64,000 nt of DNA from Mytilus trossulus (taxonomy: Eukaryota), in assembly GCF_036588685.1 (NCBI RefSeq), contig NC_086386.1, forward strand, positions 60,698,001-60,762,000, read 5' to 3'. A model generated the notes under the pieces. It was given only the letters and a program-made list of their open reading frames with translations, was not told the origin of the DNA and made no database searches. Both the position numbers and the translations under genes were made by a program. This document shows positions 527 through 59,796 of the stretch, in pieces; position 1 is the stretch's first letter; every line of letters starts with the position of its first letter.

Positions 527-3113
527 CTGAATATACCAATTCTGTATTATTATTTGAACAATGATTTCTTCCCCATCTTATATATGTTGTTCCAATGCCT
601 AAAATCAGAAATGTATTACAAATGCAAATTCAGAAATAAAGTGAATAGAGCCTATGTTTTGTCTACAATTTTCAAGGAGACATTTATGAAGTAAGAATAC
701 CATAATACATTATAAATATCGTGTGGAGTTAACACAAAGATTAACTATTCATGTTATCGTGTAACCACATTACACGTTGACTTAAAAATCTGATGAGGAA
801 TTATTGAAAGCATAACAAAAACATAGAGTATGAGGAAAACTTTTTATCAAATTTATAATTTTCTTCTATGTTGTTAGTATTACAGTCGTAGGCCATAATA
901 TTTGTAAATTGAACAATTTGACTCCTTGAAATATTTGAGATGACATAATTTTTCAAATGTTTTGCTATTTTTGTTGTAGGGAATTAAATAGCCATACAGA
1001 CCAGCGGGGTTTGGTGCAGTTTTTTTCATAAAAAAAAACACAAAAAATATGCTAGAGAACAAACGGCAATATCTCTTACCAATCCGTATAGACTCAGCGG
1101 TGAAGACAACATATGGAAATATTTCTTTGATTCACTCAAACTGTATCTATAATATTAACCCTTACGTATCTAGCTTCAGATGCCGATTCAGGATTTTGAT
1201 TAAAAAGGGGCACAAAGACAGAGTCATGAGTTAAACTTTATGTCTTAACAATATATTTAGCTCTTTAAATCGCGTTGTGTATATATGAAAGAGGAAGGAA
1301 ATACAGTGGCAGAGTCAAACTTATAGACGGAAAATAAACTGACAACGCAATGGCTAAAAATAAAAAGATAAACAAACAATTGCAAATAATAGTACAGAAG
1401 ACACAACATCGAACACTGAAGACTAAGCAACACGAACCCCACCAAAAACTTTGGGTGTTCTCAGGTGCTCCGGAAAGGTAAGCAGATCTTGCTCCACATG
1501 TGGCACCCGTTGTGTTTCTTGTGTTATTACAAATCCGGTAAATAGTCTAATTCGGTTGGTCACATTCATTAAAAGGGAAAGGGTATTGTAGTTGTAGGAA
1601 CATATTCGATATCATCTGTGAAACGATTATTCCATAGCGGTCGACCAACTCGTGATTGCGTCCTTATAATTTACGAAGGGATGATTTCAACTTCACCATT
1701 TGGAACTCTTGCTTCCTTGTGAGTAGCAATTCTCTATCAAGGAAATCATAATAGAAAATGCAAGCACGGGAATATCGTATCAATTGGGAGATATATACTC
1801 CGTCTGCAGGTGCTGCTGGAATGTTGCTACATAGAAATGGAAATTTCATAATTGTGAAGCTGAAATCATCTCTTTTGTCGTAAGATTTATTTTCAACCAG
1901 CCCTCATTGTAAATTTCTAGATGTATGTCAAGACTTCAGACAGACTTAGCTGTATCTGTAGCATCCTTTATCTCAAGTTCGATTGGATAGATTCGTTCAA
2001 CTTAGTCACCAAATTTTGTATTATTTAGTAAGAGAACATCATCTATATCGCAAAACGTAAAGTATACGGATATTGCTAACTTCTTATATTTCTGTATGAA
2101 GTCAACATCATTATAATAAAGAAACAAGTCGGCAAGAAGAAAGGCACAACTAATTTCCATTGGAATTCCGACAGTCTGTTGAAAAACACGTCCTCCAAAC
2201 GTAACAAAAATGTGTTCAATAAAGAAACTAAGCATCTTGATAATGTCAGTTTCAGAGAATTTTTGGTTTGAAACAGAGAAATTCTTTACAAAGTAGTATG
2301 TATCCCTCCCCAAGACAAAATACTTGTTTCTACGTTCGCAATTCTTTTTAATGAAACAAAGTTATACCAACTCTTTCAATTTGTCTTTAAGTTTGGAATG
2401 AAGAATATTTGTGTAGAGTGTAGAAAATTTAAATGTTTTAAGACTATTGCAAAATGAGAGAGTCTTAGATTGTTTGTACTCTAAAAGATCTTTGGTATTT
2501 TTTAGTATCAACATCTGATTCCCGACATGTATTATTGAAACTTTCGTTAAGCCGTCTATTTATATTTTGAAATATACAAATAAAATACACCTGAAATCCC
2601 TTGTGAGTAAAAGAGAGAAAGCTTTAAAAAAGCAATTACGATAATTTACTCAATGACATGGTTAAAGTTTTAATCTGGCTCTGCATGTTTCTGGTATTCA
2701 CTCTAAATATAAAACAATATGATCATTTAGCAAATTTGTTTTTATAGAATACAGCAATCAAGAACGAATATGATATTTGACTTACTGTGAAAAATGCTAT
2801 ATGAGTTCTGCAACAGTTTGATAGTCTGTTCCTGTTTTAAAATTAACTCATCGTGTTGCTGGATTGATATGTTCTGTTGATGGATTAATGTCTGATGTTG
2901 TTGATTGAGTTTTTCTTGATTCTGAATTGTTAAAGCTTGTTGTTGGTTCTCAGTAGAGAGCTGTTTCACTGTTGCATTCAATATAGCAACAATACTTTCC
3001 ACTCGACTCAACCGATTAATCAGCACATCTGGGTCATTTAGCAGTAACCTCTTGTCTTCTGTGGTGACCAGATTTACCTTAAAATAAAGAAAATATATTA
3101 ACAACAAAATCAT
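527..3113 (-). CDS. Paralog A (partial; exon 3 lies before the window): secreted coiled-coil + short-chain collagen C4-like domain protein. Exons 2786-3113 and 527-598
   Basis: ATG at 3113 gives MILLLIYFLYFKVNLVTTEDKRLLLNDPD and a Gln-rich coil; donor CAC A|gtaagt at 2785. The 72-nt exon 2 (IGTTYIRWGRNHCSNNNTELVYSG) has AG/GT boundaries and is homologous to the other copies. Confidence 0.85.
1288..2520 (-). mobile_element. Degenerate Penelope-like (Naiad-type) retroelement: RT fragment + 3' UTR (family 1)
   Basis: Remnants FVTFGGRVFQQTVGIPM..ADLFLYY..IDDVL and FPFLCSNIPAAPA.GVYISQLIRYSRAC; many frameshifts; lies in intron 1 of paralog A. Confidence 0.8.
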
Positions 3114-3149
3114 GGTTAGAAGAATGTTATTACCTATGAAGACATAAAG

Positions 3150-3200
3150 TGACACAGTTTGTATCTTATCATTCACGATTTAGAAAAGGTCACAAATGGT
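3150..3200 (-). promoter_or_regulatory. Conserved upstream module of the array genes (TGACCT-like motif + GATAAG); copy at paralog A
   Basis: GATAAG (plus-strand cttatc) at 3165, 9942, 15552, 31405, 39188, 53397 and 59848; same 52-nt offset from the ATG in A, C, D, F and G. Confidence 0.55.
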
Positions 3201-4837: not shown

Positions 4838-5435
4838 AAAGAAGAGGGACGAAAGATACCAAAGGGACAGTCAAACTCATAAATCCAAAACAAACTAACA
4901 ACGCCATGGCTAAAAATAAAAAAAAAGAAAAACAGACAAACATTAGAACACATGACACAACATAGAAAAATAAAGAATAAACAACACGAACCCCACCAGA
5001 AACTAAACGTGATCTCAGGGTAAGCAGATCCTGCTCCACATGTGGCACCCGTAGTGTTGCTTATGTGAAAACAAATCCGGTAAATAGTCTAATTCGGTAG
5101 GTCACATTCCTGAAAAGGAAGTGGATTGTAGTTACGACGTAAGGAGCATATCCGATATCATTTGTGAAACGGTTATTCCATAACGGTCAACCAAACTCGT
5201 GATTGCGTCCGTAAAATTTACGAAGGGATGATTTCAACTTCACCATTTGGAACTCATGGTCCTTGTGAGTAGCAATCCTCTATCAAGAAAATCATGATAG
5301 AAAATGCAAGCATGGGTATATCGTATCAATTGGAAGATATATACCCGGTATGCAGGTGCTGCTGGAATGTTGCTACTTAGAAATGGAAAGTTCACAATTT
5401 AAAAGCTGAAATCATCTCTTTTGTCGTAAAGTTTT
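4838..5435 (-). mobile_element. 5'-truncated copy of Penelope-like family 1
   Basis: Collinear with about 1290-1880 and 41289-41850. Confidence 0.75.
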
Positions 5436-7743: not shown

Positions 7744-9908
7744 TTACTTAGAACAAACTACACATGTCAGCGGATAATTGTTAATGTACGGTGGACATTT
7801 CAAAGATCCGCATACAGTAACAACGTCATAAAACAGTTTACCATAATGTTGAGCCGCACCTCCAATAACGTATTCTGGGTTTATATCAATGCATTCGTAA
7901 GTCGAAGCAGCGGCATTTTAATAACCTCCTGACGATAAATATCCATAATACTCTCTCTTCCATCCGCTGTAACATCTATCTTTTCCAGGAATCATTATCA
8001 CAGAAGTAGCTCGAGTCGTTCTACATAGTGCACATGGAACATCTTGACCATCAGCATAAGAGGAAAAAAAGTTATTATCGAATTCTCCACCATATATTTG
8101 AGCACTATTTGTACCTCTAGTTTTTAAATAATTTGGATCTGGTGGTAAACACACACTCTCAGATGCCGAGCCCGATACACCATAGTAACCCCCACCAGCA
8201 TATCCTGTAAAAAAGTATCTCGATATACATTCCAGTTGATGCATATCACATGTATTAACATATACGTATGGCACCAAATCAGTCATGCATGTAAGTCACA
8301 AAAAAATTAAAGTTTCCTGTCAGTGCAGCTAACGAGATAAGATTTTCAATCTATACGAAACTGCTGGTATATAATTATTTCTAATTGTGTACAGTGAAAA
8401 ACAGTTAAAACACAAAAAAGATTGACAAAGCAAATAAATAGCGCAGCCTGTAGTAGTTTAGAGTTGTGGCTATCAAAATAAAGGTACCAACAGGCAGTAT
8501 TATATTTGGAAAATCTTTTTACAATAGTGGTTGTAGTTTATAGATTTAGTTCATAAGTGTTTTCTCGTTTCTTTTTCTTTTATGTATATACAGTTGGTTA
8601 TCATGTTTAACTGGATTTACACTAGTCTTTTTTTTTTTTTGGGGGGGGGGGGGGTCCTTCATAGCTTGCTGATCGGCGTGAGTCAAGGCTCCGTGTTGAA
8701 GGCGGTTCTTTGACCTATAATTGATTTCATTTACAAATTGTGACTTGGTTGAACAGTTCTTTCATTGGCACTCATACCACATCTTCTGTCAACTGGTTAG
8801 TTATACGATAAGGGAAATTCAATTTTAAGAAACTTGAAATGAATAATATGTTAAATAAAATTAACTTCTTTACCTGAGTAAACCAATTCTGTATTATTTT
8901 TTGGACACTGCTTTCTTCCCCATCTAATATAAGTTGTTCCAAATTCTGAAATCAATGCAATGTTTGCTTGCTGATTATGGTAAATTTTTAATTAAAATAT
9001 TTTTGGAGAAAAAGTTAAAGTTCGAATTTGATTAACAACTTTTAAAAAAAATCTATTTCGGTCATATTTTACGAGATTTACAATAGAGCTAAGAAATATT
9101 TTGAAAAATAAATGTTAAGAAATTGTGTTTGAGTTCATAATAAACATTAGATATATTAAGTTTTAAATGACACTTAAGTTTGCAGAAAAATATATACAAA
9201 ATATTGTAAACACTCGATGTGGCAAATTATCGCAAATCATGTCAACTAAAACACGCTTGACATATCCTAAGCCTTTAATAATATGCATCGGAAAATATGT
9301 ATTACGAAAATATTTGACTTTGGCTTATTATATTTCATATCATATGTTTTGAAGTTTTAAAATAACGTCAGCAACAACAACAAAAAAGAATGCCTTGCTA
9401 TCTTTCTAAAACGTTTCACATAATTAATCCTGCGATGGATTTAATTTTTTTCTTCGAAGAAAAATGACACAAGAGTCTTACCTTGAGAACTGCTAAATGA
9501 CCCTTGTAATTGTTTGATTGTCTGCTCGTGTTGTTGGATCAATGTTTTTTTATGCTGGTTTGATGTCTGTTCTTGATAGATTGATATTTGTTGTTGATTG
9601 ATTAATGACTGTTGTTGTTGCGTTAACGTCTTCTGTTGTTGAATTGATGTCTGATGTTCAAGGATTGATGTCTGTTGTTGCTGAATTGTTTTCTCTTGCT
9701 GTTGAATAGTCAATCCCTGTTGTTGATTTTCAGTAGATAACTGTTTTACAGTAGCATTTAATATTGCAACAATATTTTCTACTCGGTTCAAACGATCAAT
9801 TAGTATGTCTTGGTCATTAATCAAAAACCTCTTCTCTTCCAAAGTGACCATGTTTACCTTAAAACAGAGGAAATAATATAAGCAGACAAATCTACTTAGA
9901 TGCACCAT
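7744..9908 (-). pseudogene. Paralog B, single premature stop. Exons 9482-9908 (or 9953), 8874-8945, 7744-8204
   Basis: Canonical GT-AG sites, both introns phase 1. Exon 3 is full length (461 nt) but has an in-frame TAA at 7918-7920 (SGGY*NAAASTYECID...CVVCSK*). The ATG used by the other copies is AGA (9893); upstream ATGs exist at 9908 and 9953. Confidence 0.85.
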
Positions 9909-13332: not shown

Positions 13333-15500
13333 TCACTTAGAACAGACTACGCATGTTAGTGGATAATTGTCAATGTACGGTGGACATTTCAATGATCCAC
13401 ATCTGGAAAGAACTTCATAAAACAATTTACCAAGATGCTGATCAACACCCCCAATGATATATTCTGGGTTGAGCTCAACACATACGTAAGCCGTAGCTGC
13501 TGCATGAACATGATTCCCGGACGCTAAATATCCATGATATTCTATCTTCCAGCCCTTGTAACATGTATTTTTTCCGGGAATCATTACAACAGATGTGGCA
13601 CGTTCTGCTCAACAGAGAGTCTTCATCGTTAGCATTGGAGGCAAAAAAGTTCGAGTCAAATTCTGCACCGAACATACGACTATATTCTCCCCCACTAGTT
13701 TTTACATAATTTGGATCTGGTGGTAGACATACATATTCAGCAGCTGCGCCTGGATCAGTATAGTGACTCCCACCTGCAAAGCCTGTAATAGTTATGTAAC
13801 ATCAGTATGGAAAAATAATAAATGCATACTTAGTAATCGGGAAATAATCCACATAATATTTTAAAACAATGAACAGTAGTTTATGTGAAATACTCGTATA
13901 CTAGTATAATAAATGAAGGAAACATTAATCTTATACTTGAAGTAATAGGCAATGGGATGATATATTTTCTAATTGAAATGTGTAAAATTGAAAACACAAT
14001 GATGCTAAAATATCACAGATTTAAAACTACCAACTACGAGTATCAAAACTCTGCATTTGATATATTAAACCTATATGAAAAAGTAAAACCACTAAAATAG
14101 TTATCAAATTAAGATACCAGGATTATAATTTAGTACGCCAGACGCGCGTTTCGTCTACATAAGACTCATCAGTGACGCTCATATCAAAATATTTATAAAG
14201 CCAAACATGAACAAAGTTGAAGAGCATTGATGATCCAAAATTTCCAAAAGTTGTGCCAAATACGGCTAAGGAAATACTGAACTAAGAGGAAAATCAAATC
14301 GGAAAGTCCATAATCAAATGGCAAAATCAAATAACAAAAAACATCAAAAACGAATGGACAAGAACTGTCATATTCCTGACTTGGTATAGGCATTTTCAAA
14401 TGTATAACATGGTGGATTAAACATGGTGTTAAAGCGCTAACCCTCTCGCTTTGATGACAGTCACATCGAATACCGTTTTATTTAAAATGATGCCTGAACT
14501 AAACAGACATAATAAATAAAATAGTCAAAATATGGGAACAGCAGTCATCATCGTGTTACAATTATAAAAGGAACAATTTAACAGAACACAAAAACATCTA
14601 TCTACAAAGTGTAACATATTTACCGGAATATATCAATTCTGTATTATTATTTGGACACTGCTTTCTTCCCCATCTAATATAAGTTGTTCCGATACCTGAA
14701 ATAAAGTAGATAATGATTGGTGTATTTCAAATAGACCATAGACACATGTTATGTTGATTGATTGGTTGCTTATTCAGACATGAAACCTTAAAACAATGCT
14801 ATGTTAAATACCATGTTTATGATACAATGGCATTTACGACACAATGGTTTCTTCAGTTAAAAGCACACTGAAGTACTCAAGTTGTAATAATTGTTTTACA
14901 GGTGAACTGAACAAGAAAGGCAAGAGATTGTTATATCTTCACATCAGCCAGATCAATTAGTCACACTCACACGAGTTAACAAAATATGCAGTTATACGTT
15001 GTTTGCTTGACTTTACGATTGTGTTTGGATCTTTTGTAAATTCTCTTCTTTATGAAAAAAGTCTTACTTGGAATGGTGTTAAATGAGCTTTGCAAAAGTT
15101 TAATTGTCTGCTCCTGTTGTTGATTTATTATCTGTTGTTGTTGATTTATTGTTTGGTGTTGTTGGATGGTGTTCTGTTGTTGTTGCATTAATGCCTGTTG
15201 TTGTTGAAGTGTTGCCTGTTGCTGTTGAATTGATGCGTTTTGTTGTGTAATCCATGCCTGTTGCTGAAGTGTTGATGTCTGATGTTGCTGAATGATTTTC
15301 TCTGGCTGTTGATTAGTTAACATCTGCTGTTGGTTTTCGATGAAGAACTGTTTTACTGTGGCATTCATTATTGCAACGATATTTTCAATTCGGTTCAAAC
15401 GATTAACGAGTACATCTGGATCATTAAGCAATAGCCTCTTCTCTTCTGAGGTGACCAGATTAACACTAAAACAAAAGAAATATATTAACCAAATGATCAT
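13333..15500 (-). pseudogene. Paralog C, frameshifted. Exons 15068-15500, 14624-14695, 13333-13782
   Basis: Exons 1 and 2 are intact. Exon 3 is 450 nt versus 461: an 11-nt deletion near 13620 removes the VPC codons, and TGA replaces the Arg codon at 13609-13611 in the ancestral frame. Confidence 0.87.
14135..14178 (-). ncRNA. Minimal type-I hammerhead ribozyme (retrozyme repeat, family 1)
   Basis: GCGUCA-CUGAUGA-GUCU(UAUGU)AGAC-GAAA-C(GCGC)G-UC-UGGCGU: complete catalytic core, stems I and II paired, palindromic loop 3, GUC cleavage triplet. Confidence 0.88.
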
Positions 15501-23932: not shown

Positions 23933-24019
23933 AAGTTATACGAGAATAATGCAATCAACACGTTATACATTGCATCCGAAATCGATTTTCAGAAAACGAC
24001 ATCTGTAACAAACACACAT

Positions 24020-27764: not shown

Positions 27765-30700
27765 TTACTTAGAACAGACTACACAGGTCAATGGATAATT
27801 GTTAATATACGGTGGACATTTCAAAGATCCACATTTTGTGAGGACATCAAAGAAAAGTTTACCGTAATGAAAATCCACGCCTCCCATAACATATTCTGGT
27901 TTGATGTCTACGCAAACATAAGCAGAAGCAACATTGTGACCATAATATCCCGATGCCAAGTATCCATGATATTCCAACGTCCATCCTCTATAGCAAGTAT
28001 TCTTACCGGGAATCATTATCACAGATGTGGCTTGATTCGTTCTACATAAGGCACACGGGACGTCCTCGCCATTAGCATTCGAAGCAAAAAAGTTGGAGTT
28101 AAATTCTGCACCGTACATATGACCATTATCTGCTCCACCACTAGTTTTTACATAATTTGGATCTGGTGGCAAACATACATATTCAGCAGCAGAGCCTGAC
28201 TCGCCATAATAGCCACCACCTGCAAAGCCTGTGGAAAAAATATGTACCCTATTTACAAAATAGCACATGCTTTGGACATATGTTTCTAAAGCTATTTTCT
28301 ATGAAACGCTCCCCATAAATGTCTGTGAACCTTGAAAAAACGTGTCCAGTCATTTATCAATGAGAGTTCGAAAATTGTAAACCAATTGACAAATACATAC
28401 CCTCATAGATAACATCGTATTAGTCGAACTATTCAAATTGAAGACGATTTGACCATAACACCAACTCTTAAAATTTGAGTCTTGAAATAGGAATTTTAAA
28501 ATACTGTTTTAGAACAAGCACAACAGGACTAACTTGGCAAAAACATACAATTAGTCACTAGAAATAATCAACAACAAATTGTCTCCACAATTTGGCTAGT
28601 AGAAAGTTAATATGGCAGTTGTTGTCCATTCGTTTTTGATGTTTTTTGTCATTTAAGTTCAGTATTTTTCTGATTTTACTTTTTAGATAACAAAATTACC
28701 GAACTCCGAGAAAAATTTAAAACGGAAAGTCATTTATCAAATGACAAAATAGAAAGCTTATACACACCAAACGAATGGATATAGTCAACAACAATGCATA
28801 ATTCAAGAGTCATATTTCATGTATTTGTAAACATTGTCTTTAATTTGTTAGGATTTGATTCAAACAAATATGATAACTTTCTAACCTGAGTAAACTAATT
28901 CTGTGTTATTATTTGGACACTGCTTTCGTCCCCATCTAATATAAGTTGTTCCAAAATCTGAAATATATATATATTGGCATACTTTATCTTTACAATATTG
29001 AAAGTTCTTTTAATGCCATATGGCAACAGTTTTGATACGTTTCATGCAAACGGCACAAAAAACACTGCAAACAAGGAAAGGAACTTGAACTTTAAACACA
29101 TGGAGATATCAAACAAAATTTGTTTGTATGAATGATGATTGCAGCTGCTATACGTTATCAATATTTTAAGGTAGATCGGGTGTCTTTTTTCGCCAGCCTT
29201 TTTGAAATATTTTAAGAATACTTTTAATTATACCAAGTAGTATTTAATATGAAATATAGATGTTTTAAATATGAAATATAAACATTATTAAATTTAATGA
29301 TTAAACTTTCAAAACATCTGGTGTCATTACGTGCATTATAAGTATATAGAAAACAATCCCTTTCAAATCATGGGCAGATAATTAAAACGATTTTAAAAGA
29401 ACAAAGTGCATCCATATACACACAACTGGGTTATTATGCTGTCTTTAGCTGTGGTATGGGCTTTGGTCATTTTAAAGGTCTTACGGTGACCTATAGCTAA
29501 TGTTGTTAAGTTGTTAAGTTGTGTGTCATTTGGTCTCGTTTGGTGAGATTTCTCGTCGAAAATCATAACACATCATCGTTTTTTTTTTTATTTCTACATC
29601 ATATTGATATTTTTTTTCTGTGTTTTACATTAAGAATTGTCTGATTATCAGTCGTTATACATCTCCTTTTTTATACAACTAGTTCAATCCTTACTTTAAA
29701 TTTCACCAGAAAAATTACAATTAAATGCATAAAATAATAAATACACTCATTACAGACACCAGGCTTTAACTTTTGTAGGTCAGATGAATTATTTGGTTTT
29801 AAACGACTCAGCAATGACAATCCAATCTATTAAATCTTAAACGGTAACAAAATGTACAAAGTCGGAGGGCATTGATAATCCAGAATGTCGAAAGAGTTTG
29901 CCAAATACAGTTAAGGGAATATGTCTCTTTTGTAGAAAAGCATTATAAATTCGAAAAATAAAACTTTTGTGAAGAGTTTATTTAGAGTAAAGACCAATTC
30001 TATGATAATGCAAGAGGACACAGTTGTGCGAAATACTAGGCTGGTATCACCCTCGGGAAGGAAACCTTAACTAGCATTTGTATAGATAAATTATTTACAT
30101 ATAAACTCATCATATATACCTGGCTAAAATTGTGTTCGCCAGACGCGTGGTTTGTCTACAAAAGACTCGGAGAACTCAAACATTGTCAAAGTTCCGAAAA
30201 CTTGCTAAATAAAGCTAAGGTAATCTATTCAAGAATCTTTTAAAAAAAATAGATGGTAATCAGGATGCTAGCAATGACAAGACATTAACTTCTTGCTTCA
30301 AAATTTTGATATTGAATTTAACGAGAAAATAAAATCATTTACAGAATTGAATTAAAATTATATAGAGAAAGGTGGCAGATAATCTCAACATAGATACCAG
30401 GATTGCAATTGTGTATGCACGGCGAACTCGTGAATACATGTTCCAAAGGCTTTTGTTCAATTCAGGTAAGGTCTAAAAAATCCCTATTATGGATGAAATG
30501 TTTATGAGCTGAAGATGAACCTAGATAAACACACACATGATGAGTTCACTGTCGAAATAATCAATTACTAGAAATATCAGTCAATTTGAAAAAATCACCT
30601 TCAAATGTATATAATGTTGGTTCAGTTTATATGAGCCTTCTCTGTCTACATTTCAATATTTGCTCCCTAAAAGACTGATGCAATATTGTGTAAAGACCTA

Positions 30701-31353
30701 AAAATATTTTTCATGCCAAATTTGAATTATTAAACTATAATCTGTTTGCTAACACAATACAGTCAGATAGTGTTATTTACAAACATAAATCCAGTGTTAG
30801 ATAATCAAACATATATCATTATTAGTCAATACAGTTATTGTGTTTTACATGATTAAATTGATGAGTTTTGATTTAAGAACTTATGTAAATCAGGGTACAA
30901 ATTTATTCTATATTTAAACTCCAACTGAAACTCCAACTTTGACATTTTCACATTTCATTCTTTTTATAATCATGTGTGTGTGTGAGTATTCTGGAGGGGT
31001 CAATATAAAAACAGAACGATGGACAAATCTAGTATCTTACAAAGAGTAAATAAGAAACAACATATGTTACTAAGTAATCAAGTCTTACGTTGATAGTTTC
31101 TAATAGTATCCTGTAACTGTCTTATTGTATGTTCCTGTTGCTGGTTTGAAATTTGCTGTTGCTGAATAGTTATTGACTGTTGTTTGTTCTCAGTTGATAG
31201 CTGCTGCACTGTACTATTAAGTACCGCCAGGACACTTTCAAGTCGATTCAATCGATTAACAAGTACATCTGGGTCATTTAGCAGTAACCTTTTTTCTTCT
31301 GTGGTGACCAGATAAACCTTAAAACAAAGAAAATATATTAACCACACCATCAT
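27765..31353 (-). CDS. Paralog D, intact: secreted coiled-coil + short-chain collagen C4-like domain protein, 266 aa. join(31089-31353, 28886-28957, 27765-28228)
   Basis: MMVWLIYFLCFKVYLVTTEEKR...; exons 265+72+464 nt in frame with GT-AG sites; ends CGSLKCPPYINNYPLTCVVCSK*; AATAAA just after the stop. Confidence 0.9.
29750..30420 (-). repeat. Degenerate tandem retrozyme units with inactivated hammerhead cores
   Basis: HHR-like remnants at about 29777-29820 and 30136-30170, ~360 nt apart; flanks resemble 14100-14275. Confidence 0.55.
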
Positions 31354-33505: not shown

Positions 33506-33844
33506 TTACGTAGAACAGACTACACATGTCAATGGATAGTTGTTAATGTACGGTGGACATTTCAGAGATCCACATCTGGTATCCATGATATTCAACCTTC
33601 CAACCACTGTAACAAGTTTTTTTTCCAGGAATCATTTTAACAGATGTAGCCCGATCAGTTATACATAGAGCACAAGGGACGTCCTCAGCATCGGAATTGG
33701 AGGCATAGAAGTTCGTGTAAAATTCAGCACCGTTCATACGACCCCCGTCTGGCCTTCTAGTCTTTTCATAATTGGGATCTGGTGGTAAACATACATATTC
33801 AGCAGCCGAGCCTGTTTCTCTATAATAGCCGCAACCTGCATAGC
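33506..33844 (-). pseudogene. Orphan duplicated exon 3 (E') with a 122-nt internal deletion
   Basis: AG acceptor, then YAGCGYYRETGSAAEYVCLPPDP...EYHGY fused out of frame to RCGSLKCPPY...CVVCST*; part of a ~0.9-kb local duplication with 34870-35810. Confidence 0.85.
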
Positions 33845-35915
33845 CTGTGATAAAACTAAACATAATGTAAAAGTATTCAAAGTAACACGAAGATGTACAC
33901 ATAAATATCTAAAGCTTGTTTTTTGTGTCCTTTTCCTTAATATTGTTCGTAACACAAATATACTTTCACGTATTATTTCAAGAATATCCAAGATGATCAT
34001 TCCCAAACTAGGTATTTCAGACATATCTTTGAAATGATTCATTAATATTTTCGTTTAGAGTTTTCTTCGGCGTTTATTTTTTTTTTTACTTTTTTACTTT
34101 TATATTTTACTTAGCGTATCGAAAAACAGTTTGAATGCATAAAGCATTCTAAAACTTGTGGCGTACTAAATGATAAGCCTCGTACCTTTGATAACTATAT
34201 AAACCACTTGGTCGATGCAACTGCTGGTGGACGTTCTGTTTTTCGAAAAACCAAAGATTTTCTTATCCCAAGACTATCTTACCGTTTTGTAATGTTTCGT
34301 GGCATTTTATTCCTGTAAGACCCAAACATGCAGTTAAAAGAAAAAAATATATACTTTATGTTCTGTTCGTGTATCTAACTTTGGTTTGGTAAATTATAAA
34401 TTACTTATTTAAATATCAGGTAAAAAAAACTCGCATTAATTGCTTGGACAAATGAAATATCAACTTGGACAAAATGGCTACCGCTTGAAAAACGACTGTG
34501 TAGAGATGGTTTTATAGAATCTACAAGTTTTGAACTCTCGAACAATGAGGCAAATGTTTGTTCTTTCGGTATATGTTATAATTATCTCACATTTTTTAGA
34601 TATGTTTAGCTATGTCTACTTATAAAACTACCGTTCAGCCGTTAAGTCAACGACAAACGTCATTTGACATTTTTCTTATTCCAGCTTAATATGTAGCCAC
34701 CTAGTCAAACGAAATTCGACTAAAGAACGGCTTAAATTTAACCAAGAACTGACAAACTTCGTTGTTTCTGTCAAGTTTCGGGAGATGAGAGAAAAAGAAA
34801 TAGGATCACTATACATAAGAGATAAAACAGTTGTTCAAAAATGTAACGTTGAACATCCGATTTTTTCACAAGTTTCGTCAACTATAGCCATTAACTTGAT
34901 CAAAAGTATATGTATAAGGAATTCTGAACCAATATTTGATATCTTTTATTTTATTACTTAGAACAGACTACACATGTCAATGGATAATTGTTAATGTACG
35001 GTGGACATTTTAGAGATCCACATCTGGTAAGAACTGGATAAAAAAGTTTTCCGTAATGCCGATCCACGCCTCCTATAATATATTCTGGGTTTATGTCAAC
35101 ACAAACGTAAGCAGAAGCAACATTATGAGTATGATCTCCTGAGGCCAAGTATCCATGATATTACACCTTCCAACCACTGTAACAAGTATTTTTACCGGGA
35201 AACATTATCACAGATGCATGAATTGTTCTACAAAGAACACTAGGGACGTCCACATCATCGAACTGGATGCATAGAAGTTCGTGTAAAATTCTGCACCGTA
35301 CATACGACCCCCGTCTGGTCCACTGGTCTTTTCATAACTTGGATCTGGTGGTTAACATGCATATTCAGCAGCCGAGCCTGTTCCCCCATTATGGCGCCAC
35401 CTGCATAGCCTGTGATAAAAATAAACATAATGTTTTCAAAATTACACGAAAACGTAAACATCAAAATCTAAAGCATGTTTTCTGTGTCCTTTTCCCTAAT
35501 ATTGTTCTGACATAACTATACTCTCTCGTGCTATTTCAAGAATATACAAAATGATATTTCCCAAACAAGGTATTTCAGACATATCTTTGGAATGATTCAT
35601 TAATATTTTCGTTTTGAATTTTCTTCGGCGTTCAGTATTTTTGTGATTTTACTTTTTTACTTTCTTAAATTTAACTTAGCGTATCGAAAAACAATTTCAA
35701 TGCATAAAGCATTCTAAAACTTGTGGTGAACTAAATTATATAAACCACTGGGTCGATGCCACTGCCGATCGACGTTCTGTTTTTCGAAAAACTAAGGATT
35801 TTCTTATCCAAGGAATAGGTTACCTTAGCCGTATTTGGCACAATCTTTTGAAATTTTGGTTCCTAAATGCTTTTTAACTTCGAAATTGTATGGCTTTATA
35901 AATATTTTGACATGA

Positions 35916-37619: not shown

Positions 37620-40600
37620 TTCCACTGCTAGTGGACGTTTCGTCCCCGATGGTATCACCTGCCAAGTAGTCAGTACTTCGGTGTTGACATAAATATCAAT
37701 GTTGTGGTCATTTTTATAATTTTCCTGTTTACAAAACTTTGAATTTTTCAAAAAATTAAGGATTTTCTTATCCCAGGAAAAGATAAACTTAGTTATAAAA
37801 GTCTCTAGAAAGTGTATAACTGTTTTACATTGTACATTGAATTACTGTAAAAAAAAAAACACTAATAAAAATACATGTATACGTGCACTTTGATTAGGTC
37901 GATTTTTTTCGACGCGACTAGCATACATCAAAATTTATTTCGGATGGGGTTATTATAGGAGTAAATAATGTCCCAAAATAAAAAAACTAGAGAAAAATAT
38001 GCAACGATCAGTATCTGTGTATTAGGGAATGTTGAAATAATGAGACTGTGAAAATAAGTTATACAGAAACGCAGATCACCAAATCATACCATTATACACA
38101 GGATATTCGTTCTTCCCCATCGAATATGCCAAGACCTGATACATATTATGTTTTACGTTTTTATTTTAAATATAACAAAATTGAGATTCATGGCAAGGAG
38201 GGTCATATCTCAGTTTCTGAACAAGTCGGTGGTCTCCAATAGGATTTAATGGCAGAAGTAATGTTAAAGATCACGTGGATGTAACCTAATAATGTGCATG
38301 AAATGAAATCGCACATCAGTACTGTTAATGCCAATGTAAAAACGCTTTAAGACGTTTATTCTACCTTGGAGTTAGTTTAAGAGAGAACTGGACACGAGCA
38401 ATTGAAGCTAACATTAGCAAAATACTAGTGCGTGGTTAATTCAACATTTAGAGTATTTTTACATTAAGTTTAATCCATAGCGGCGTTCGGTCACAAGTTG
38501 TCTTATTTTTTATATTCAAATACGGCGATTTGTTATACTTTTTAATACATTGGCTGATGACTTTTTTTTATGAAATTAATGTAGAAAATGTAAGGAACTA
38601 TATGTTTTTGCTATGCATTCACAATTTGTTTTGATCCGACGTAATCGACTTCTTGACAACGCCCATTGTTGTATGACGTCAGAGAGTGAAATTACCACGT
38701 TTATTTCACATGTGAAATTATCGGTTTTTTTTAATTGGGAAATCAATGTAATTTATTGCAACCAATGTAATAAAAGAAAAATATCTATGTAGATGTGTGC
38801 ATTTATTTTAATTATTCAGTATTTACGAATCAGGCTAAGTGACAAATTGATCATTTAACGACTAGTCAAGCAAACGTGAGAAAATATAAATTGTATTATA
38901 ACAATAAATAATCTTACGTTGAGAATTGTTGGTAGCATTTCGCAACTGCTTAATTGTATGTTCCTGTTGATTGATTGATGTCTGCTGTTGTTGAATCGTT
39001 AAGGATTGTTGCTGCACTGTACTGACTTTTAAGTCGATTCAATCGATTCACTAGTACATCCGGATCATTGAACAATAACCTCTTTTCTTCAGTGAGGACT
39101 GTGTGTACCTTAAAAGAAAGAAAATAAATGAACCAAACAATTATTTCGAATATCTGTGACGGAACAAAAGTCACACGACTTAAATTCCTTATCGTATAGG
39201 CTCAAAAGGTTAGGAAAGGTCTAACGTTTATATGACATGGAAAACGGCACGATTCATCATGTCGATGTGTATATGACTTTTTATAAGTGCCCACATGACA
39301 GTTTCAACCTACCTAAAATTTATGTTGAATTGCGTAAAGAAGTAAAAAAAAATGCAAAGTTTGATAAACAGATTATCTTCCTATCTGCATGAATAGCAAA
39401 AATGTAACATGGTTAATGTTGTTTGAATAAAACATGTTTCTGCTGTTGTTTTTTTCTATGGTCGGGTTGTTGTCTCTTTGACACATTCCCCATTTCCATT
39501 CTCAATTTTATTGTCAAATCATATTCTTTGGCTTTTATATCACAAGTTATACAAGACACAGTAGACCTCAAGTACTGTGGAGAAAGCTACCTTTAGCAAA
39601 GTCGATATTTTGTATGGAAAACCCCAAAAATTAATCTCACAAAAAATGTCAGATACATATTGCTTAAACAAATCACCTCACATATAGTACCATCATAACA
39701 TATTCATAGAAGGTACACAATAGCATTATCATGAAACATAATTATAATAAAAAAAAAACCATGCCGGTCGAGGTTTTGAATGAGAAACCAGAAATATCAC
39801 TCATATCAAAAGGTAAAGCAGAAAGTGCACAATGGCATTAAGAATTTGAGAACAGTTTGTTTGAAAACTATTCACTAGCTCGAGAGGATAGCGAGTTTTA
39901 GCGTCAATAATCATTATATGAAAGAGAACATTCAATGTTTTGCATGCGAAACCCCAGGAATCATTCTGGTCAAAAGTGAAATAGGACGTTCACAACAGCA
40001 TAACGTCAAGACGAATCATTATGTTAAAGTCTGATTGGAATCCATTCACTTGATAAGGATAAATTGTGGATGGGGTGTAAGAATAGTAATATGAATCGAT
40101 TTGGGTTCTTGTGAGCCTCTAGTAAACCTAGCTATCCCAATCAATTTATACATCACGATGGTAACTTCCTGATATTCCTACATTTCATAAATTCATATTC
40201 CTTCTATTCTACAAACAAAGAACAATAGATGTATCAGATGATTTGTTGTTTTAGCAATTTAGATTTGATTGAAATACAGGTAAGTACAGGTAATCTGGAA
40301 ATGATTATTTCAATGAATATTTCTTTAAAAAAGGTTTTTAAAAGGTAATAAACCCTAAATATGACTTTTATGTTAATTTTTTATAAATATCTTGTTGGGG
40401 ATATTATATTTGCCGGTAAACTCTATTTATTTTGACTATGCTCTAATTAAATGGTGTTGATGCTAGAATAAATGCTACAAAATTATAAAGTTGTGAAAAG
40501 AGAGAAAAAAAAAAGAAAAAAAGTCTGTATGTTAATTTGGATTTTTTTAACCCATCCATACAACTCGCCGATATTTCTTTACTCAATTGAAACCTAGAGG

Positions 40601-41288: not shown

Positions 41289-41850
41289 AAAAAGAGGGAC
41301 GAAAGATACCAGAGGGACAGTCAAACTCATTAATCGGAAATAAACTGGCATTGCAATGGCTAAAATTAAAATAAAAAGACAACAAGACAAACAATAGTAC
41401 ACATGACACAACATAGAAAACTAAGGAATAAGCAACACGAACCCCACCAAAAACTGGGGGTGATCTCAGGTGCTCCTGAAGGGTAAGCAGACCCTGCTCC
41501 ATATGTGGCACCCGTCGTGTTGCTCATGTCAAATCCGGTAAATAGTATAATTCGGTGGGTCACATTCATGAGAGGGAATGGGATTGTAGTTACGACGAAA
41601 GGATCATATCCGATATCATCTGTGAAAAGGTTATTCCATAACGGTCAACCAACTTGTGATGGCGTCCGTAAAATTTACGAAGGGATAATTTCAACTTCAC
41701 CATTTGAAACTCTTGGTTTAATAGCGTCATTGTGAGCAGCAACCCTCTATCAAGAAAATTATGCTAGGAAATACAAGAACAGAAATATCGTATCAATTGG
41801 GAGATATATACCCCGTATGCAGGTGATGCTGGAATAGTGCTACTTAGAAA
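41289..41850 (-). mobile_element. 5'-truncated copy of Penelope-like family 1
   Basis: Collinear with 1290-1840 and 4838-5380. Confidence 0.75.
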
Positions 41851-46590: not shown

Positions 46591-47018
46591 TATCGCTTAC
46601 CAATGCCAATGTTATACGCAGCAATGAAACTGAAATTAATGTTCAGCCAACCAATTTTGATAACTTCCGCTCCATGCAAAATACCCATCGTGACTTGCAG
46701 TCTACAAATAACTTGTACAACCAAGGCTTTTAATCGGTATCAAATAGCAGTCAAAACCACAGATTACCTAAACTTGATTTACCGCACTTTGATGGGGAAA
46801 TTTTACAATGGCAAACCTTTTGGGATTCCTATGAATCAACTATTCATTTCAACAGTACTTTGACTGAGGTACAGAAATTTAGTTACTTGAAGGCCCAACT
46901 CCATGGCCATGCCGCCCAAACTATTGAAGGTTTCGCACTCACAAATGCCAATTACACCACTGCCGTTAATTTGCTCAAAGAGCGTTTTGGATAGCCTCAC
47001 AAGATTATTCATGCCTAC

Positions 47019-48990: not shown

Positions 48991-51900
48991 TTATTTTGAA
49001 CAAACGACGCATGTTAGTGGGTAATTGTTAATGTATGGTGGACATTTCAGAGATCCGCATTTCGTTACAACGTTATATAAGAGTTTACCAAGATGTTGAT
49101 CAACACCTCCGATAATATACTCTGGCTGTATGTCAACACAAACGTAAGCAGTAGCAGATGCATCCCCATAATATCCAGAAGCTAAATATCCATGAAATTC
49201 CATCTTCCAGCCACTGTAACATGTATTCTTTCCAGGAATCATTATAACAGACGTAGCTTGAGTCGTTCTACAGAGAGCACAAGGGACATCCTCATCGTCA
49301 GCATTGGAAGCAAAAAAGTTGGAGTTAAATTCTGCACCGTACATTCGTCCATGATCTGATCCACTGGTCTTTTCATAATTTGGATCAGGTGGTAAACAAA
49401 CGTATTCAGAAGCGCTGCCTGATTCACTATACTGGCCACCACCAGCATAACCTGTGAAGTAAAATTGACCATGCATTCTCTTAACAAAACTTTTTGTTTT
49501 AAATACTAAGGCTTGTCTACCTAAGGAATATATTTCATTTGCTGCATTTGACAAAACCTTGACTGAATTTTGGTCCTCAATGCTCTTCAACTTCGTATTT
49601 TATTGCCATTTTAACTTTCTCGGAGGGAATTGGGCATCACTGATGAGTCTTTTGCAAACGAAACGCGCGTCTGGCTTTAAATACATAATTCAACCGTGGT
49701 ATTTATGATGAGTTAATACACAAAACGTTGTTTGAATAAAAGTTTCGATAAATATAAAAAGATTTTCTCATTTTTAGGCTTCCTTTACGTGAAAGCATAA
49801 AACCAGCATATATGTTCAAACGGTGTCAAACGGCTGCTATAATACAATTTCTTAAAATTTACAATGAAAAACTGATACAACTGTTATAATCACAATGTTT
49901 TTTTCTTGATCGATAACACTTATTCTCGTTGCGCGGTTAAAACAGTTAATATTATGTACATAATATAGTACTTTGAAAACAGCAGTGTTGTGATATAAAG
50001 ACTGCGAAATGTCAATTGTTTTGTTTTGAACGAACGTTGAAGTCAAAAATACATACTGTATCAATGCATATATATATATATATATACAACTCGTCTAAAC
50101 ATCAACCCAACAATGTTAAATCTGTAAATTTGCTTTCGCAAATTTTTGGTTCTTCCCTCGGCGGGATTCGAACCCATGCTACTGTGATATCGTGACGCCA
50201 AATCGCCTGCACTGCAGCCGTCCCGCTAGACCACACAACCACTTGGGCTCTCAAAAAAAAGAGCTTTCGCTGGCCGTGTGTTACCTTGCCACGTCAGTTT
50301 TAATCTAGCGGCGTACTACAGTACATGATATATAAGGCATGCAGATGTTAATGTTACAGATCAGCTAAATTATCTATAGTAAAGGATCCTAGAGTTGTAC
50401 TCAGACGTACTTATATATATATACATTATGTACACAGCCATGTATCACCATCATTGATGGCGATCCGATGGATACATCTGTTGTAGAGTTGTCACTGACT
50501 CAGACGTACTTATATATATATATATATGTATGGGAATTAAGATCCATTATGTTACATCTTGTGATCAATTTGATTCGGCAATCTCCAATGGCAGTCAGCA
50601 GGGTTAAAGAACATCAGTTGTTAGAACTGTTAGTCAAATGCGTTTTGTTTAAATATACTTTTTCACTTTTTTTGGTCTTTTGGAAAATGTTATTTGTGCT
50701 GTTTATAGACCCTTCTTCAACGAAATTTGTTTACATGCACACGTATAAAAATTGCGGTTTTTATCCAACGCAATCATAGCCTAGGTTTGAACGTAGTTTT
50801 CAATTTAGACTCGTATATATGAGAATAATATACAGTTAACTACTACAAATAGATACAGAAACAGTCTTGACCAAGGGCCGAAAGGAAAAGTCGAATCAGT
50901 ATCCTCTTTTAGTGCACATCATTTTTCGCAAAGATATTTTCGCAAAGATATTTTCGCAAATAAAGTGTTATAGCTATACTAAAAGATATATAAATATATT
51001 CCATTAAAAATGATAGCATTTTCAGAATAAAGCGCCACCTGATTCATACAACAACTCAACTCAATTATCACAAAACTTTTTTAGAGTCTATTGTCGTGCT
51101 ACAATCTAAGCTTTATAAATCAGTGTACATTGGTCTACTCGAAGTATTAAATCAGCCTTAGCAAGAAAGTGGTCAAAATATTTCTGAAACTGTAACCGAA
51201 ATCAAAAATCTTTAAAAATAATAAATGTCAATCTTAATGCACCAGCTCCAGATGCGAATTTCAGTTATTAATGTCACGATAGTGATACATGTATTTGCGG
51301 ACAAAATAAATGATAGACCAATGCTTTGAACAAATATTCCTTGCATATTTTATGACGTGTTTTTAAAATAAAAATATCTGTTCATCTCCGCTTTTTGATG
51401 ATTGTTCTAGCTAGATATACGTACGGACATAATTCAAGCATTAATAATATATGATACATCTAATCAATCATATTTTTCTACCTGAATAAACTAATTCTGT
51501 ACGATTACTTGGGCACTGCTTTCTTCCCCATCTGATATAAGTTGCGCCAAAATCTGAAATCGACATGATGATGTTTGTTGTTTAGTTGAGGTTCTGTCAA
51601 CATACTTATACATTGCAAATTAGTTTTATTTTGTATGAAAAAAAGTTATAACGTGATTCTCGGAGATAAATATTGTCTGAAGTACTTTGTTCTGATGGTT
51701 CTACAAGTTTTACAATTGCATATACCTCAGACCTTTAGGTGCGAGATAATATATATAAAGTGTTCAGAGGTCAAATGTTTTTCACCATTTGAGATAACGC
51801 AATACATAAACAAATTTCTTATTTCTACTGAAGATAGTTCTTGTCTGCATTAAATTAAATGTTTGCATAAAATTCAGAATTTCTGTTAATTTCTGTATAT

Positions 51901-53345
51901 CATGCAATTATTATGAAGTTAATTTATGATTTACATTTTTTGGAAATTCACTGCTTAAATACAGATATGAAATTTTGCACGATAAATTATTTGGCTACAA
52001 AAGGAAAAATACACGAAGTTTCAAGTTTCAATCTTAACTACAATCCCCTTCCCTTTCATGAATTCGACATACCGAATTAGACTATTTACCGGATTTGTAA
52101 TCACATAAGCAACACGACGGGTGCCGCATGTGGAGCAGGATATGCTTACCCTTCCGGAGCACCTGCGATCACCCCTAGTTTTTGGTGGGGTTCGTGTTGT
52201 TTATTCTTTAGTTTTCTATGTTGTGTCATGTGTACTATTGTTTTTCTGTTTGTCTTTTTCATTTTTAGCCATGGCGTTGTCAGTTTGTTTTAGATTTATT
52301 AGTTTGACTGTCCCTTTGGTATCTTTCGTCCCTCTTTTCAATACATAATGATAACTCAGTTTATTTCTAACTATACGTAATGGGATTTGATCATTGTTTA
52401 AGGTCGTACGGTGACCTATATTTGTTCATTTCTGTGTCATTTGGTCTCTTGTGCAGATTTGTCTCATTGGCAATCATACCAATCTTCATTTTTATGTATA
52501 ATGTTTAATAAATTCATTTTTAAGCGATAAAGTTATGCAAATATTTTCACTTTTTTTCTTCAAAATAACCATAATGAACTGACCAAATTTAGACTTTAAC
52601 TTTGACTTTTAATTAAATTCGGGCCTCACATACGTTTCAAAAATTATTTTTTTAATTTTTGAACAGCAGTATACTACTGTTGCCTTTATTTATATGAAAT
52701 ATTAAGGGACATTTTTTGCTTGAAGACTGTATTATGATCAATCGAAGATTTGAATAAACAGAGCACATGCGTATGATATAACTTCTCAAGTTTCTTAATT
52801 TAAGTATGTTTCTACACAGATATCGTTATCCTTAATGAAAATGACCTTTTATGATTACTATATTATATAGTTTGTCAATTTGTTTTTGTAATGATAAGGC
52901 AATGATAATTTTTATTTCAATGTTCAAAGAAAAAATGCAAGAAAAATAATCGAAAACTATTCTATTTCTTAAAATATTCACTTAATAGATTATGTTCAGA
53001 ATTTTTATGATATATATTTTATGACTTCAGAGTCTTACTTTGAGTGCTGCTTACTGATCCTTGTACTTGTTTAATAGTCTTCTCGAATTGGTTGATCAAT
53101 GCCTGTTGTTGTTGGATTGAAGTCTGTTGTTGCTGAATAATTTTCTCTTGCTGCTGATTTGTTACTGTCTGTTGTTGGTTTTCAGTAGTTAACTGTTTAA
53201 CTGTAGCATTAAGTATCGCCACGATATTTTCAACTCGGTTCAGCCGATTAACCAATACATCTGGATCATTGAGCAGTATTCTCTTTTCTTCTGTGCTGAC
53301 CAGATAAACCTTAAAACAAAGAAAATATATTAACCACAATATCAT
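48991..53345 (-). CDS. Paralog F, intact: secreted coiled-coil + short-chain collagen C4-like domain protein, 279 aa. join(53039-53345, 51482-51553, 48991-49451)
   Basis: MILWLIYFLCFKVYLVSTEEKR...; exons 307+72+461 nt in frame, canonical splice sites, no stops. Confidence 0.9.
49634..49677 (+). ncRNA. Hammerhead ribozyme family 1; core intact, stems partly mispaired
   Basis: GCAUCA-CUGAUGA-GUCU(UUUGC)AAAC-GAAA-C(GCGC)G-UC-UGGCUU; in intron 2 of paralog F, antisense to the gene. Confidence 0.7.
50087..50510 (-). mobile_element. Repeat containing a tRNA(Leu/Ser-like)-derived segment, embedded in (TA)n
   Basis: The minus strand of 50153-50248 has A-box-like TGGTTGTGTGGTCTAG and B-box GGTTCGAATCCC; (TA)n tracts on both sides. 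Confidence 0.6.
52037..52340 (+). mobile_element. 3' end of Penelope-like family 1
   Basis: Reverse complement of 4838-5130; in intron 1 of paralog F. Confidence 0.7.
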
Positions 53346-56810: not shown

Positions 56811-57200
56811 CGAATGCTGAAGTGTGTATAGGCATTCCAATTTTCATTGTTAGCATTTTTATCTCAACTATTTATTACATAAACGTACATATATGGGTCA
56901 TGTTTGAGTTTTCTGTGTAGTTGAGTTGAAGGAGTAAGATGTTTGTCTTTTATTGGCTTTTTTCTGACAATGTTTTTGTCTTTTTATTAGACTCTAAATG
57001 TAGTCCTTTTCCCTTTTGATGTTATAACTCCATGTAGCAACGACCAATTCAAAATGTCAGTGACTAAAGTATAAGAATGTTGTTGGCTCTTTTTATATAG
57101 AAATACAAGTGTTTTTGACTATCGATTCCTGCAAATCCGACAACTTATTTGAGCATTTATATTAAAAACACGAATCTGTATTTTGATATCTTTTATTTTA

Positions 57201-59796
57201 TTACTTAGAACAGACTACACATGTCAATGGATAATCGTTGATGTACGGTGGACATTTCAAAGATCCGCATTTGGAAAGAACTTCATAAAAAAGTTTACCA
57301 TAATGTTGATCAACGCCTCCCATAATGTATTCAGGTTGTATGTCAACGCAGACGAAAGCAGAAGCAACGTTTTCAACGTGATGACCAGAGGCTAAGTATC
57401 CGTGATATTCCTCTTTCCATCCACTGTAACATGTATTCTTCCCAGGAATCATGATCACAGATGAAGCACGAAGAGTTCTACAAAGAGCACATGGGACGTC
57501 CTGGTTATCAGAATTGGAAGCAAAAAAGTTTGAGTCAAATTCTCCACCGAACATACGACCATAATCTGACCCACTAGTCTTTACATAATTTGGATCTGGT
57601 GGTAAGCATACATATTCAGCAGGCGAGCCTGGATCGCTATATTGACCACCACCTGCAAAACCTGTGATTAAAAAAAAGAATAAGTGATAATTAAATATGT
57701 TATGTTTATATGTATACTATGCTGTTTTGTATCGTAGATTGATTATACTTTCACACGTGTAAATTCAAGTAAAATAAGATTTTTCTTATCAAATATGATC
57801 AAAGATAAACAGCATAGTATTATCATTTCATCTACATGATACTAGATAAATCAGTGGGTCTCTAATGAAAGTAGTTTACAAGTAAAATCAATAGTGAAGT
57901 TACAGAGCATTGTTAACAATTCAACAGGATAGAACACAAACCCGACACATTAAATCAGGGACGTATATATATTTTAAGTCCTTGCATTAAATATACCGAA
58001 AGATTAAAAACTCTACGATATGAGCAAGGAAATTATGATTGGCACATTACTTAGGAAGCTCTGCGCTACAACAGTAACAAGCTAATGTGGCCACAGTTTT
58101 TGCATTGTTAACAATTCAAAAGGATAGAACACAAACCCGACACATTAAATATACCGAAAGATTAAAAACTCTAAGATATGAGCAAGGAAATTATGATTGG
58201 CACATTACTTAGGAAGCACGGATAAAATATCTGCGCTACAACAGTAACAAGCTAATGTGGCCACAGTTTTTGTTGAATGCTGTCGTTCAAGTAACAACAA
58301 AGATCAGAAACATCACTGCTAAGTTGTATTGAGCAAGGAATTGTATAGTTATACTATTCCTCGTATTGACACACAAAGACATACGTAAGGGTCTGGATTG
58401 GGATTACATATACAGATCTCGTGCGCTTTAAATAGTAAAATTCAAAAGAAAATAAGGGGGTTTTAATTTATAGAATAGAGAATAATGGGCAAGTGAAATT
58501 AAAGAATACTGGAATAATGACCGCGATAAACACGCTCAAATATATAAAGTAGTATTATCTAAAGTATTGATAGTGAAACCGATGAGGCTTACCTTACAAT
58601 CATATCTGAATATTGAGGTCTTGAAACAGAAATTCATAATTCAATCTAACATAAGCACGAAGGGGAATAGCAAGACAAAGATATACACTTGTCACTAGAA
58701 ATCTTCAATGACAGAATACCCGTTCAGCTGTTAGGATTGAAGATTAGACAAGAGATCTCGTTGGAGTTATTTGATTCTGATTTTAATTAATTTTGTATCA
58801 TAAATTTAAATCACATTCTTACCTGAGTAGACTAATTCTGTGCTGTTAATTGGACATTGCTTTCTTCCCCATCTAATATACGTTGTTCCAATGCCTGGAA
58901 TATTTATTTTTAATTCGGACATATTGTAAGCACATAAACAATTATGGAATTCTGCAATTCAACATGAGTTTAGTGTAAAATACACAAATTCGCTAAATAA
59001 ACGAAAATCCAAACAACTCGTTGTTATAGTGAAATTATGAATTACCAAAGACAAAGTTTTAATATAAGACGTGTATCAAGGTTTAAATCCCAATTATATC
59101 GACTGAAGAGAAACGTTAAATGCCTTTTCTATTGTAATATGCATGACATCACATTACAAAGGGCTCAGTGATGTTCAAAAGATAAAATGGAGAAGTAGTG
59201 TATATAATATCATTATATCTAAATAGTTCTGCAGTGTATTTCTTTTTAATTTTAACTTGATTAATATCGTAATACACGGGTTAAAATTTAAGCTTGTTTT
59301 TATGGAGCAACAGATGAAGACATAAGGGCATCTTTTCAAATTAACAATGTATGAACAATATTCCTTAACTGATACAATTTTCAATATCTTTCACTTTTGA
59401 AATCTCGAATTATTAGCTAAAGACGGTACCTTGCCATCTTAAAAAGAGAAGATAAAAACCATATCTTTTTGTCTGTTAGAGTTGTGATTTCTTTTATAAT
59501 CTAGTTGTCAAATAAAGCGGATTTTTAATAAATAGTAAGTTAAAAGTATGAATTATAAACATAAAAGTCTTACTTTGAGTAGTACTAACATAATCGTGTA
59601 ACTGTTTAATAGTCTTTTCCTGTTTCTGAATTGTGATTGACTGCTGTTGTACTGTGTTATTGAGTACCGCCACGACACTTTCTAGTCGGTTTAACCGATT
59701 TACCAGTACATCTGGGTCATTCAGCAATAACCTCTTGTCTTCTGTGGTGACCAGATAAACCTTAATAAAAAGAAAATATATTAACCATGCAATCAT
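57201..59796 (-). CDS. Paralog G, intact: secreted coiled-coil + short-chain collagen C4-like domain protein, 251 aa. join(59574-59796, 58823-58894, 57201-57661)
   Basis: MIAWLIYFLFIKVYLVTTEDKR...; exons 223+72+461 nt in frame, canonical splice sites. Confidence 0.9.
57907..58272. repeat. Tandem duplication of about 195 bp with indels, intron 2 of paralog G
   Basis: gcattgttaacaattcaa.aggatagaacacaaacccgacacattaaat ... gctaatgtggccacagtttttg occurs twice. Confidence 0.85.

Follow-up and report, generated by a model that had tools for sequence, protein, structure and literature searches.

Spongin short-chain collagens are recognised, in the criteria given by PMC5395295, by a C-terminal domain homologous to the collagen IV NC1 domain, by ten Cys (seven shared with collagen IV and three specific), by the lack of an HSQ motif and by a short Gly-X-Y region. 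Bivalve C1q-like proteins of type II are described as having a signal peptide, a coiled coil that replaces collagen and a globular oligomerising head, and as being encoded in tandem arrays (PMC6835236). Bacterial chemoreceptors are reported to fall into length classes (36H, 40H etc.) that differ by whole heptads of coiled coil (PMC5907407), WbdD is described as a three-stranded parallel coil with a head at one end (PMC5082667), and Gln or Asn is reported at core positions of the trimeric coils of SadB, SadA and GCN4-pIQI (PMC3953254). Here we describe a 64-kb stretch of Mytilus trossulus DNA on contig NC_086386.1 (the whole stretch analysed, hereafter the window) that holds eight tandem copies (A to H) of a gene with three coding exons, all on the minus strand. 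These genes form a collagen-free NC1 family in which a minisatellite codes for a predicted coiled-coil stalk, and the stalks differ in length by whole heptads. We consider it probable that this series arose by duplication and deletion of repeat units under selection on coil register, with length itself only loosely constrained, so that the quantisation would be a structural constraint with no selected measuring function.

The locus shares features with each of the described systems. The mussel head resembles that of the spongin short-chain collagens in its predicted NC1 fold, its 10 Cys (counted in P0013, with positions unaligned to those of spongins) and the absence of the HSQ motif, but the mussel proteins have no Gly-X-Y domain and carry a heptad coiled coil in its place. 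In contrast to collagen IV, P0013 has neither a long collagenous domain nor an HSQ motif. The secretion signal, the coil-for-collagen swap, the head and the tandem arrays are shared with the bivalve C1q-like proteins of type II, although the mussel head is NC1-type and there is no C1q domain. Chemoreceptors form an antiparallel hairpin with ancient symmetric indels, whereas the mussel stalk is predicted to be a parallel trimer and varies between recent paralogues and alleles through a minisatellite. A three-stranded parallel coil with a terminal head, as modelled here, is also the arrangement of WbdD, but WbdD and ROCK2 are anchored in the membrane and their output depends on length, which is conserved in ROCK2, while in the mussel proteins no anchor is evident and length is labile. 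Autotransporter trimeric coils carry an N-at-d motif. Unlike SadB, SadA and GCN4-pIQI, the mussel protein is eukaryotic and secreted, and has long runs of Gln at d with Ile or Asn at a. The literature searched, in which subscription papers were thinly covered, held no description of this stalk or of a coil swap in NC1-type proteins; Aouacheria 2006 may treat collagen-free members. Heptad length classes, coil-for-collagen swaps and polar-core trimers are already known, and the feature described here is real but largely expected, a tidy natural case of the known rule that coiled coils change length by heptads.

Stalk length and protein architecture

Each protein is built, in order, of a signal peptide, a KRLLLNDPD cap, a heptad stalk and an NC1-type head. 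Taking the homologous start position and the phase-1 GTAAG donor as end points, we measured exon 1 in the seven copies in which it lies inside the window (that of H is outside). It comprises 223 nt in G, 265 in D, 307 in F, 328 in A, 412 in B, 433 in C and 227 in E, which corresponds to 74, 88, 102, 109, 137 and 144 codons plus one base for the first six. Copy E has a 17-nt gap that was placed by aligning it locally with D, without reference to the total, and the restored length is 81 codons plus one base; the first unit of the M. edulis model P0004, which has a similar stalk, shows the same 81-codon length in frame. Our recount of the seven codon numbers (74, 81, 88, 102, 109, 137 and 144) agrees with the initial annotation that all of them are 4 mod 7. 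The nominal chance of seven independent in-frame lengths agreeing is (1/7)^6 = 8.5e-6, and applies to independent copies, which these related copies are not. A second GTAAG in F, 16 nt upstream (97 codons), was rejected as not being the homologous donor. The homologous start position is ATG in five of the seven copies, AGA in B and ATA in E, and the likely ATG of B (9908) lies 5 codons further upstream; the length rule is therefore one of the coil and not of the true exon length. Tandem Repeats Finder detected period-21 arrays in exon 1 of A, B and C and none in exon 1 of D, E, F and G. The proposal that Gln-rich 21-nt units are gained or lost whole fits these arrays and the varying number of units, but does not cover every step, since one step, setting G and E apart from the other copies, removed a heptad without a Gln-rich sequence.

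Codons 10-13 of the signal peptide in each exon 1 (e.g. 3077-3090, minus strand) form a T-rich, acceptor-like tract ending in AAG/GT. Reading this tract as a splice acceptor (TTTTAAG/GT) was rejected as the main interpretation because the AG is shifted by one base in C with the frame kept, five of the seven copies have ATG at the start, and named full-length models begin at that position. In many database models an upstream gene is spliced into the tract, which yields stalk-head-stalk-head fusions (P0001-P0004, P0008, P0022 and P0023); these are probably annotation artefacts.

Along the stalk, the cap is followed by two canonical heptads with Leu at d, by the Gln-rich units and by a closing heptad, and the a/d heptad stripe is continuous. 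Six window copies yield 37 middle heptads, in which a is occupied by Ile in 21 and Asn in 12, and d by Gln in 26 and His in 6; copy C, one of the two longest in the window, both of them broken, has Pro at a core position. If each residue is assumed to add 0.1485 nm, predicted stalk length ranges from 6.1 nm in G to 16.5 nm in C. P0009 is the counterpart of B in M. galloprovincialis and is intact; modelled as three copies, it reached a score of 0.90, compared with 0.00 for the best control, with runs that agree in at least 96% of contacts, a predicted local distance difference test score (pLDDT) of at least 87, and contacts spaced 3-4 residues and unbroken over residues 36-134. The score mark is attained by 21 of 30 solved pairs and by none of 23 monomers (among animals, by 7 of 16). 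Three features of this job weigh against reading too much into it: it was run on the counterpart of B and not on a window copy, it was calibrated on two-copy jobs with three copies imposed, and it may pass through likeness to solved NC1 trimers. Given this calibration, the imposed copy number and the possibly remembered NC1 trimers, the model supports a trimer but does not show one. The most likely assembly, as modelled, is a parallel coiled coil of three chains, and the initial claim of a coiled coil with preserved register is consistent both with the a/d stripe in the window heptads and with the unbroken predicted contacts of P0009.

Exon 1 of G is a 100% match to P0013 (M. trossulus LOC134696631). 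The named relatives found with exon 1 were all from Mytilus, while those found with the head were bivalve proteins, many of them called 'short-chain collagen C4-like', and Atlas clusters concur. Pfam assigned none of three heads to a family, and its coil matches for exon 1 and P0013 stayed below threshold; a PDB sequence search left P0013 without a match, and a profile search returned only weak Mediator coil matches. The head is predicted to have the NC1-type fold of spongin and collagen IV. In the model of the P0086 head (pLDDT 94), the top Foldseek match was collagen IV NC1 (E 3.7e-5), as was every listed row to E 0.036, and VIA placed 2 of 48,161 chains at Z of at least 2, both NC1 (one of them with Z 7.4, root-mean-square deviation 4.1, 145 aligned), although a Z of 7.4 lies below the tool's comfort line of 8, a point against the assignment. 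The longest Gly-X-Y run in P0013 is two triplets, and the window stalks have none. Since a heptad coiled coil stands where a Gly-X-Y domain would be, the annotation 'collagen' is misleading for these proteins, and it is corrected here: the bivalve 'short-chain collagen C4-like' proteins treated in this work have no collagen. A transcript annotated 'short-chain collagen C4-like', which may or may not stem from one of these genes, is listed in a gill-enriched set of M. galloprovincialis (PMC4581086), and PMC5867623, PMC6626399, PMC11270918 and PMC13093298 provide the family name and context only. The KRLLLNDPD cap (exon 1 codons 19-29 in all copies; P0029-P0081) is conserved from Mytilus to scallop and oyster, and the stalk diverges; the KR pair is a putative convertase site, and LLLNDP may cap the trimer. 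P0001 and P0008 bear the database names 'TBC1 domain family member 5 homolog A-like' and 'myb-like protein K', which are probably driven by Gln-rich composition.

Heptad steps among relatives

We collected 114 anchored stalk starts. Sixty resemble the window copies closely, and an end anchor was also present in 37 of the 60 (6 from the window and 31 from the database). All 37 two-anchor stalks fall in one class mod 7, with 11 lengths from 36 to 106 residues; weighing against this count, some database stalks are near-identical to window copies and many rows are alleles or fused models, so that they are not independent. These 11 lengths are a natural series of Gln-at-d stalks that is useful for work on polar-core trimer stability. 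Twelve of the 23 close starts without end anchor were measured with other anchors, and the remaining 11, outside the length count, include the truncated model P0021, which has one 8-residue unit. P0028, P0058 and P0059, long unnamed matches without the family motif, were left out of the counts.

Beyond the close family we defined by hand 11 other subfamilies with 43 sequences (two shared with the close-family set) and hand-set anchors. Sixteen of the 20 steps between their length classes are multiples of 7 (binomial p 8e-11, nominal only, with hand-set anchors and steps that are not independent). The four other steps, of 3, 4, 24 and 24 residues, are discontinuities of the 3/4-residue kind; they need at least two events and count against a strict rule. 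Coiled coils are reported to absorb 3- and 4-residue discontinuities through local deformation (PMC5082667). Repeat units are unalike between subfamilies (QQQGTTI, QQQDSKx, VHQLSST, RQNQEIx and several 14-mers), yet of 14 long stalks, 13 have a best repeat period divisible by 7. The word 'exact' has to be given up for the wider family, which shows one unit of 8 residues and no fewer than two 3/4-residue discontinuities.

The distance to the WG motif of exon 2 takes every class mod 7 in distant relatives; the linker after the coil varies, and anchors at the coil end were therefore used instead. By WG distance the second unit of P0001 is 4 residues off (it has a different predicted acceptor), and by the coil anchor it is in register. 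The unnamed relative P0055 has about ten VHQLSST units, two of them with proline, and its closest relatives have two or none.

Mutation, register and length

The stalk DNA is a degenerate 21-nt coding minisatellite whose units are of common DNA descent. Codons at the same heptad position are identical in 209 of 370 pairs (56.5%) against 49.0 +/- 2.1% when permuted (p = 0.002), an excess to which codon-context bias may contribute. Misalignment between 21-nt units would add or remove whole units. Changes of other lengths would also arise and would break the a/d stripe between two fixed ends, and purifying selection would for this reason remove most non-heptad changes. In the modelled structure the parallel trimeric coil would do the job that the collagen triple helix does in spongins. 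The number of heptads would be loosely constrained and would vary within a birth-and-death array, with stalk lengths predicted at roughly 6 to 16 nm. Selection that filters for register is favoured by the unrelated 7- and 14-residue units of the subfamilies, by the heptad loss outside the repeat in G and E and by the arbitrary sizes of indels in dead copies (17, 11, 1, 1, 3 and 122 nt). For the initial proposal of unit gain and loss passed through such a filter, the period-21 arrays and the codon test speak for the minisatellite part, and we infer the part played by selection. Live and dead alleles in the array could separate mutation bias from selection.

The series had also been read as a molecular ruler that sets head reach or oligomer stability. 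As a rival explanation, the heptad number of each paralogue would itself be selected, for head reach or to block mixed-length co-assembly. We examined the ruler on a head tree of 28 rows, in which five well-supported clades have at least two measured stalks and most deeper forks are unresolved; P0023, a fused model with a G stalk and a D head, was set aside as mis-paired. Stalk length is equal in three of the five clades (C, D and P0012/P0022), and some lengths are kept across species: the G-type stalk is 36 residues in M. trossulus, M. edulis and M. galloprovincialis, D is 50 in two species, C is 106 in two, and P0012/P0022 is 57. Both coil ends are conserved, and the intact heads on the long stalks of P0009 and P0082 indicate that stalk length is not merely decay. 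Yet the lengths that are conserved belong mostly to short stalks with few units to slip (the G-type stalk has none), and the other two clades differ by one heptad each (B 92/99 and H 36/43, with heads 93% identical). C-type stalks stand at 85, 99 and 106, within a single subfamily the lengths are 9, 23 and 79 residues, the longest of them containing prolines, and the longest stalks of the window, B and C, belong to broken genes. By inspection the signal peptide is the only hydrophobic stretch, so that no membrane or other anchor is evident, although the LLLNDPD cap could still dock elsewhere. The ruler has no positive support in this analysis, and we regard it as unlikely.

A more specific version holds that heptad number is a self-sorting and reach code, in which cap and NC1 head would fix the register and paralogues of unequal length could not zip together; we consider this quite improbable. 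If it were true, slippage would create new, separately assembling trimers that display heads at about 6 to 16 nm, in a setting such as gill mucus or matrix, and the locus would hold, within a collagen-free NC1 family, a series of lengths that is driven by repeats and selected. The feature would matter more only if length controls assembly partners or reach.

Neutral unit-wise slippage alone, by which a 21-nt repeat mutates only in whole units without selection on register, is another alternative to our preferred reading of unit turnover under a register filter. Several results weigh against that filter. The longest exact DNA matches lie at offsets 21 and 42 (15 and 13 nt), and the broken copies B and C still hold exact heptads. 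In a neutral slippage model the heptad share ranges over 0.04-0.99, high with steep match-length weighting (0.79-0.99) and low with shallow weighting, and selection on register is consequently not proven inside the close family. The expanded units of P0055 include prolines, which also suits slippage. The earlier remark that slippage alone could explain the pattern therefore stands within the close family, but loses likelihood in view of the numerous unrelated units elsewhere whose period is 7 or 14. Slippage gives no account of why unrelated units in separate subfamilies are nearly all of period 7 or 14, nor of the heptad lost outside the repeat in G and E. The DNA also leaves room for slips of other lengths: exact matches of at least 8 nt number 21 at offsets 3, 18, 24, 39 and 45, compared with 15 at 21 and 42. 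At offset 3, runs of CAA supply 8-nt matches, but none of the 37 stalks has a net +/-1 variant, and the sole 8-residue unit observed sits in the truncated model P0021. On this balance slippage by itself is a distinctly unlikely explanation. It is very improbable that the Gln-rich segment is a disordered, polyQ-like low-complexity linker with a period of 7 that reflects nothing but the size of the DNA unit. In favour of such a linker, 32 of 37 heptads are polar (Gln or His) at d, and polar cores are reported to reduce coil stability (PMC3953254); against it, position a is in phase with the canonical Leu/Val heptads on either flank, the trimer model is continuous through the segment, and relatives with unrelated, less Gln-rich units keep period 7.

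The gene array and other elements of the window

Within the window, complete and intact genes are limited to D, F and G; A and H extend past its ends, and B, C and E are broken. Exon 3 of B has an in-frame TAA at 7918-7920, a position that is open in the M. galloprovincialis models P0002 and P0009, exon 3 of C is frameshifted by an 11-nt deletion, and E is frameshifted with two broken exon-3 remnants and no exon 2 found in a search of the window. C-lineage heads look damaged at differing places across assemblies (13333-13782 in the window against P0002 and P0093), and these differing sites suggest repeated independent loss.

Table 1. Exons and exon remnants of the NC1-type genes, in window coordinates.
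Feature	Position	Strand	Remarks
Copy A exon 1	2786..3113	-	109 codons; signal peptide, KRLLLNDPD cap, stalk
Copy A exon 2	527..598	-	72 nt; exon 3 outside window
Copy B exon 1	9482..9893	-	137 codons from homologous position; period-21 array 9556-9707
Copy B exon 2	8874..8945	-	72 nt
Copy B exon 3 (head)	7744..8204	-	in-frame TAA
Copy C exon 1	15068..15500	-	144 codons, longest stalk; Pro at a d position; period-21/42 array 15115-15266
Copy C exon 2	14624..14695	-	
Copy C exon 3	13333..13782	-	frameshift, 11-nt deletion
Copy D exon 1	31089..31353	-	88 codons; gene intact
Copy D exon 2	28886..28957	-	
Copy D exon 3	27765..28228	-	intact
Copy E exon 1	38918..39144	-	pseudogene; ATA at start position; 17-nt deletion in coil
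Copy E exon-3 remnant 1	34954..35409	-	1-, 1- and 3-nt deletions; stops
Copy E exon-3 remnant 2	33506..33844	-	122-nt deletion; local duplicate
Copy F exon 1	53039..53345	-	102 codons; gene intact
Copy F exon 2	51482..51553	-	
Copy F exon 3	48991..49451	-	intact
Copy G exon 1	59574..59796	-	74 codons, shortest stalk; gene intact
Copy G exon 2	58823..58894	-	
Copy G exon 3	57201..57661	-	intact
Copy H exon 2	63677..63748	-	
Copy H exon 3	62544..63004	-	intact

Between exon 3 of F and exon 1 of E, at 42265-48578 on the plus strand, lies the decayed gag-protease region (DUF1759, DUF1758) of a long terminal repeat (LTR) retrotransposon, which we take to be BEL/Pao-like. Reverse-transcriptase-like fragments with a GIPMG motif and no Pfam match, presumably Penelope-like, are found at 24490-25218 (plus strand) and 2002-2361 (minus strand). 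A dispersed repeat of 300-600 bp with 81-87% identity occurs at 1288-1883, 4839-5429, 41289-41851 and 52032-52338. The window also contains a 777-bp head-to-tail duplication with one difference (26135-26911 and 26912-27688), which is either very recent or an assembly artefact, a 464-bp duplicate with 96% identity (16068-16531 and 18140-18603) and a tandem repeat of about 277 bp with 83% identity (36513-37318).

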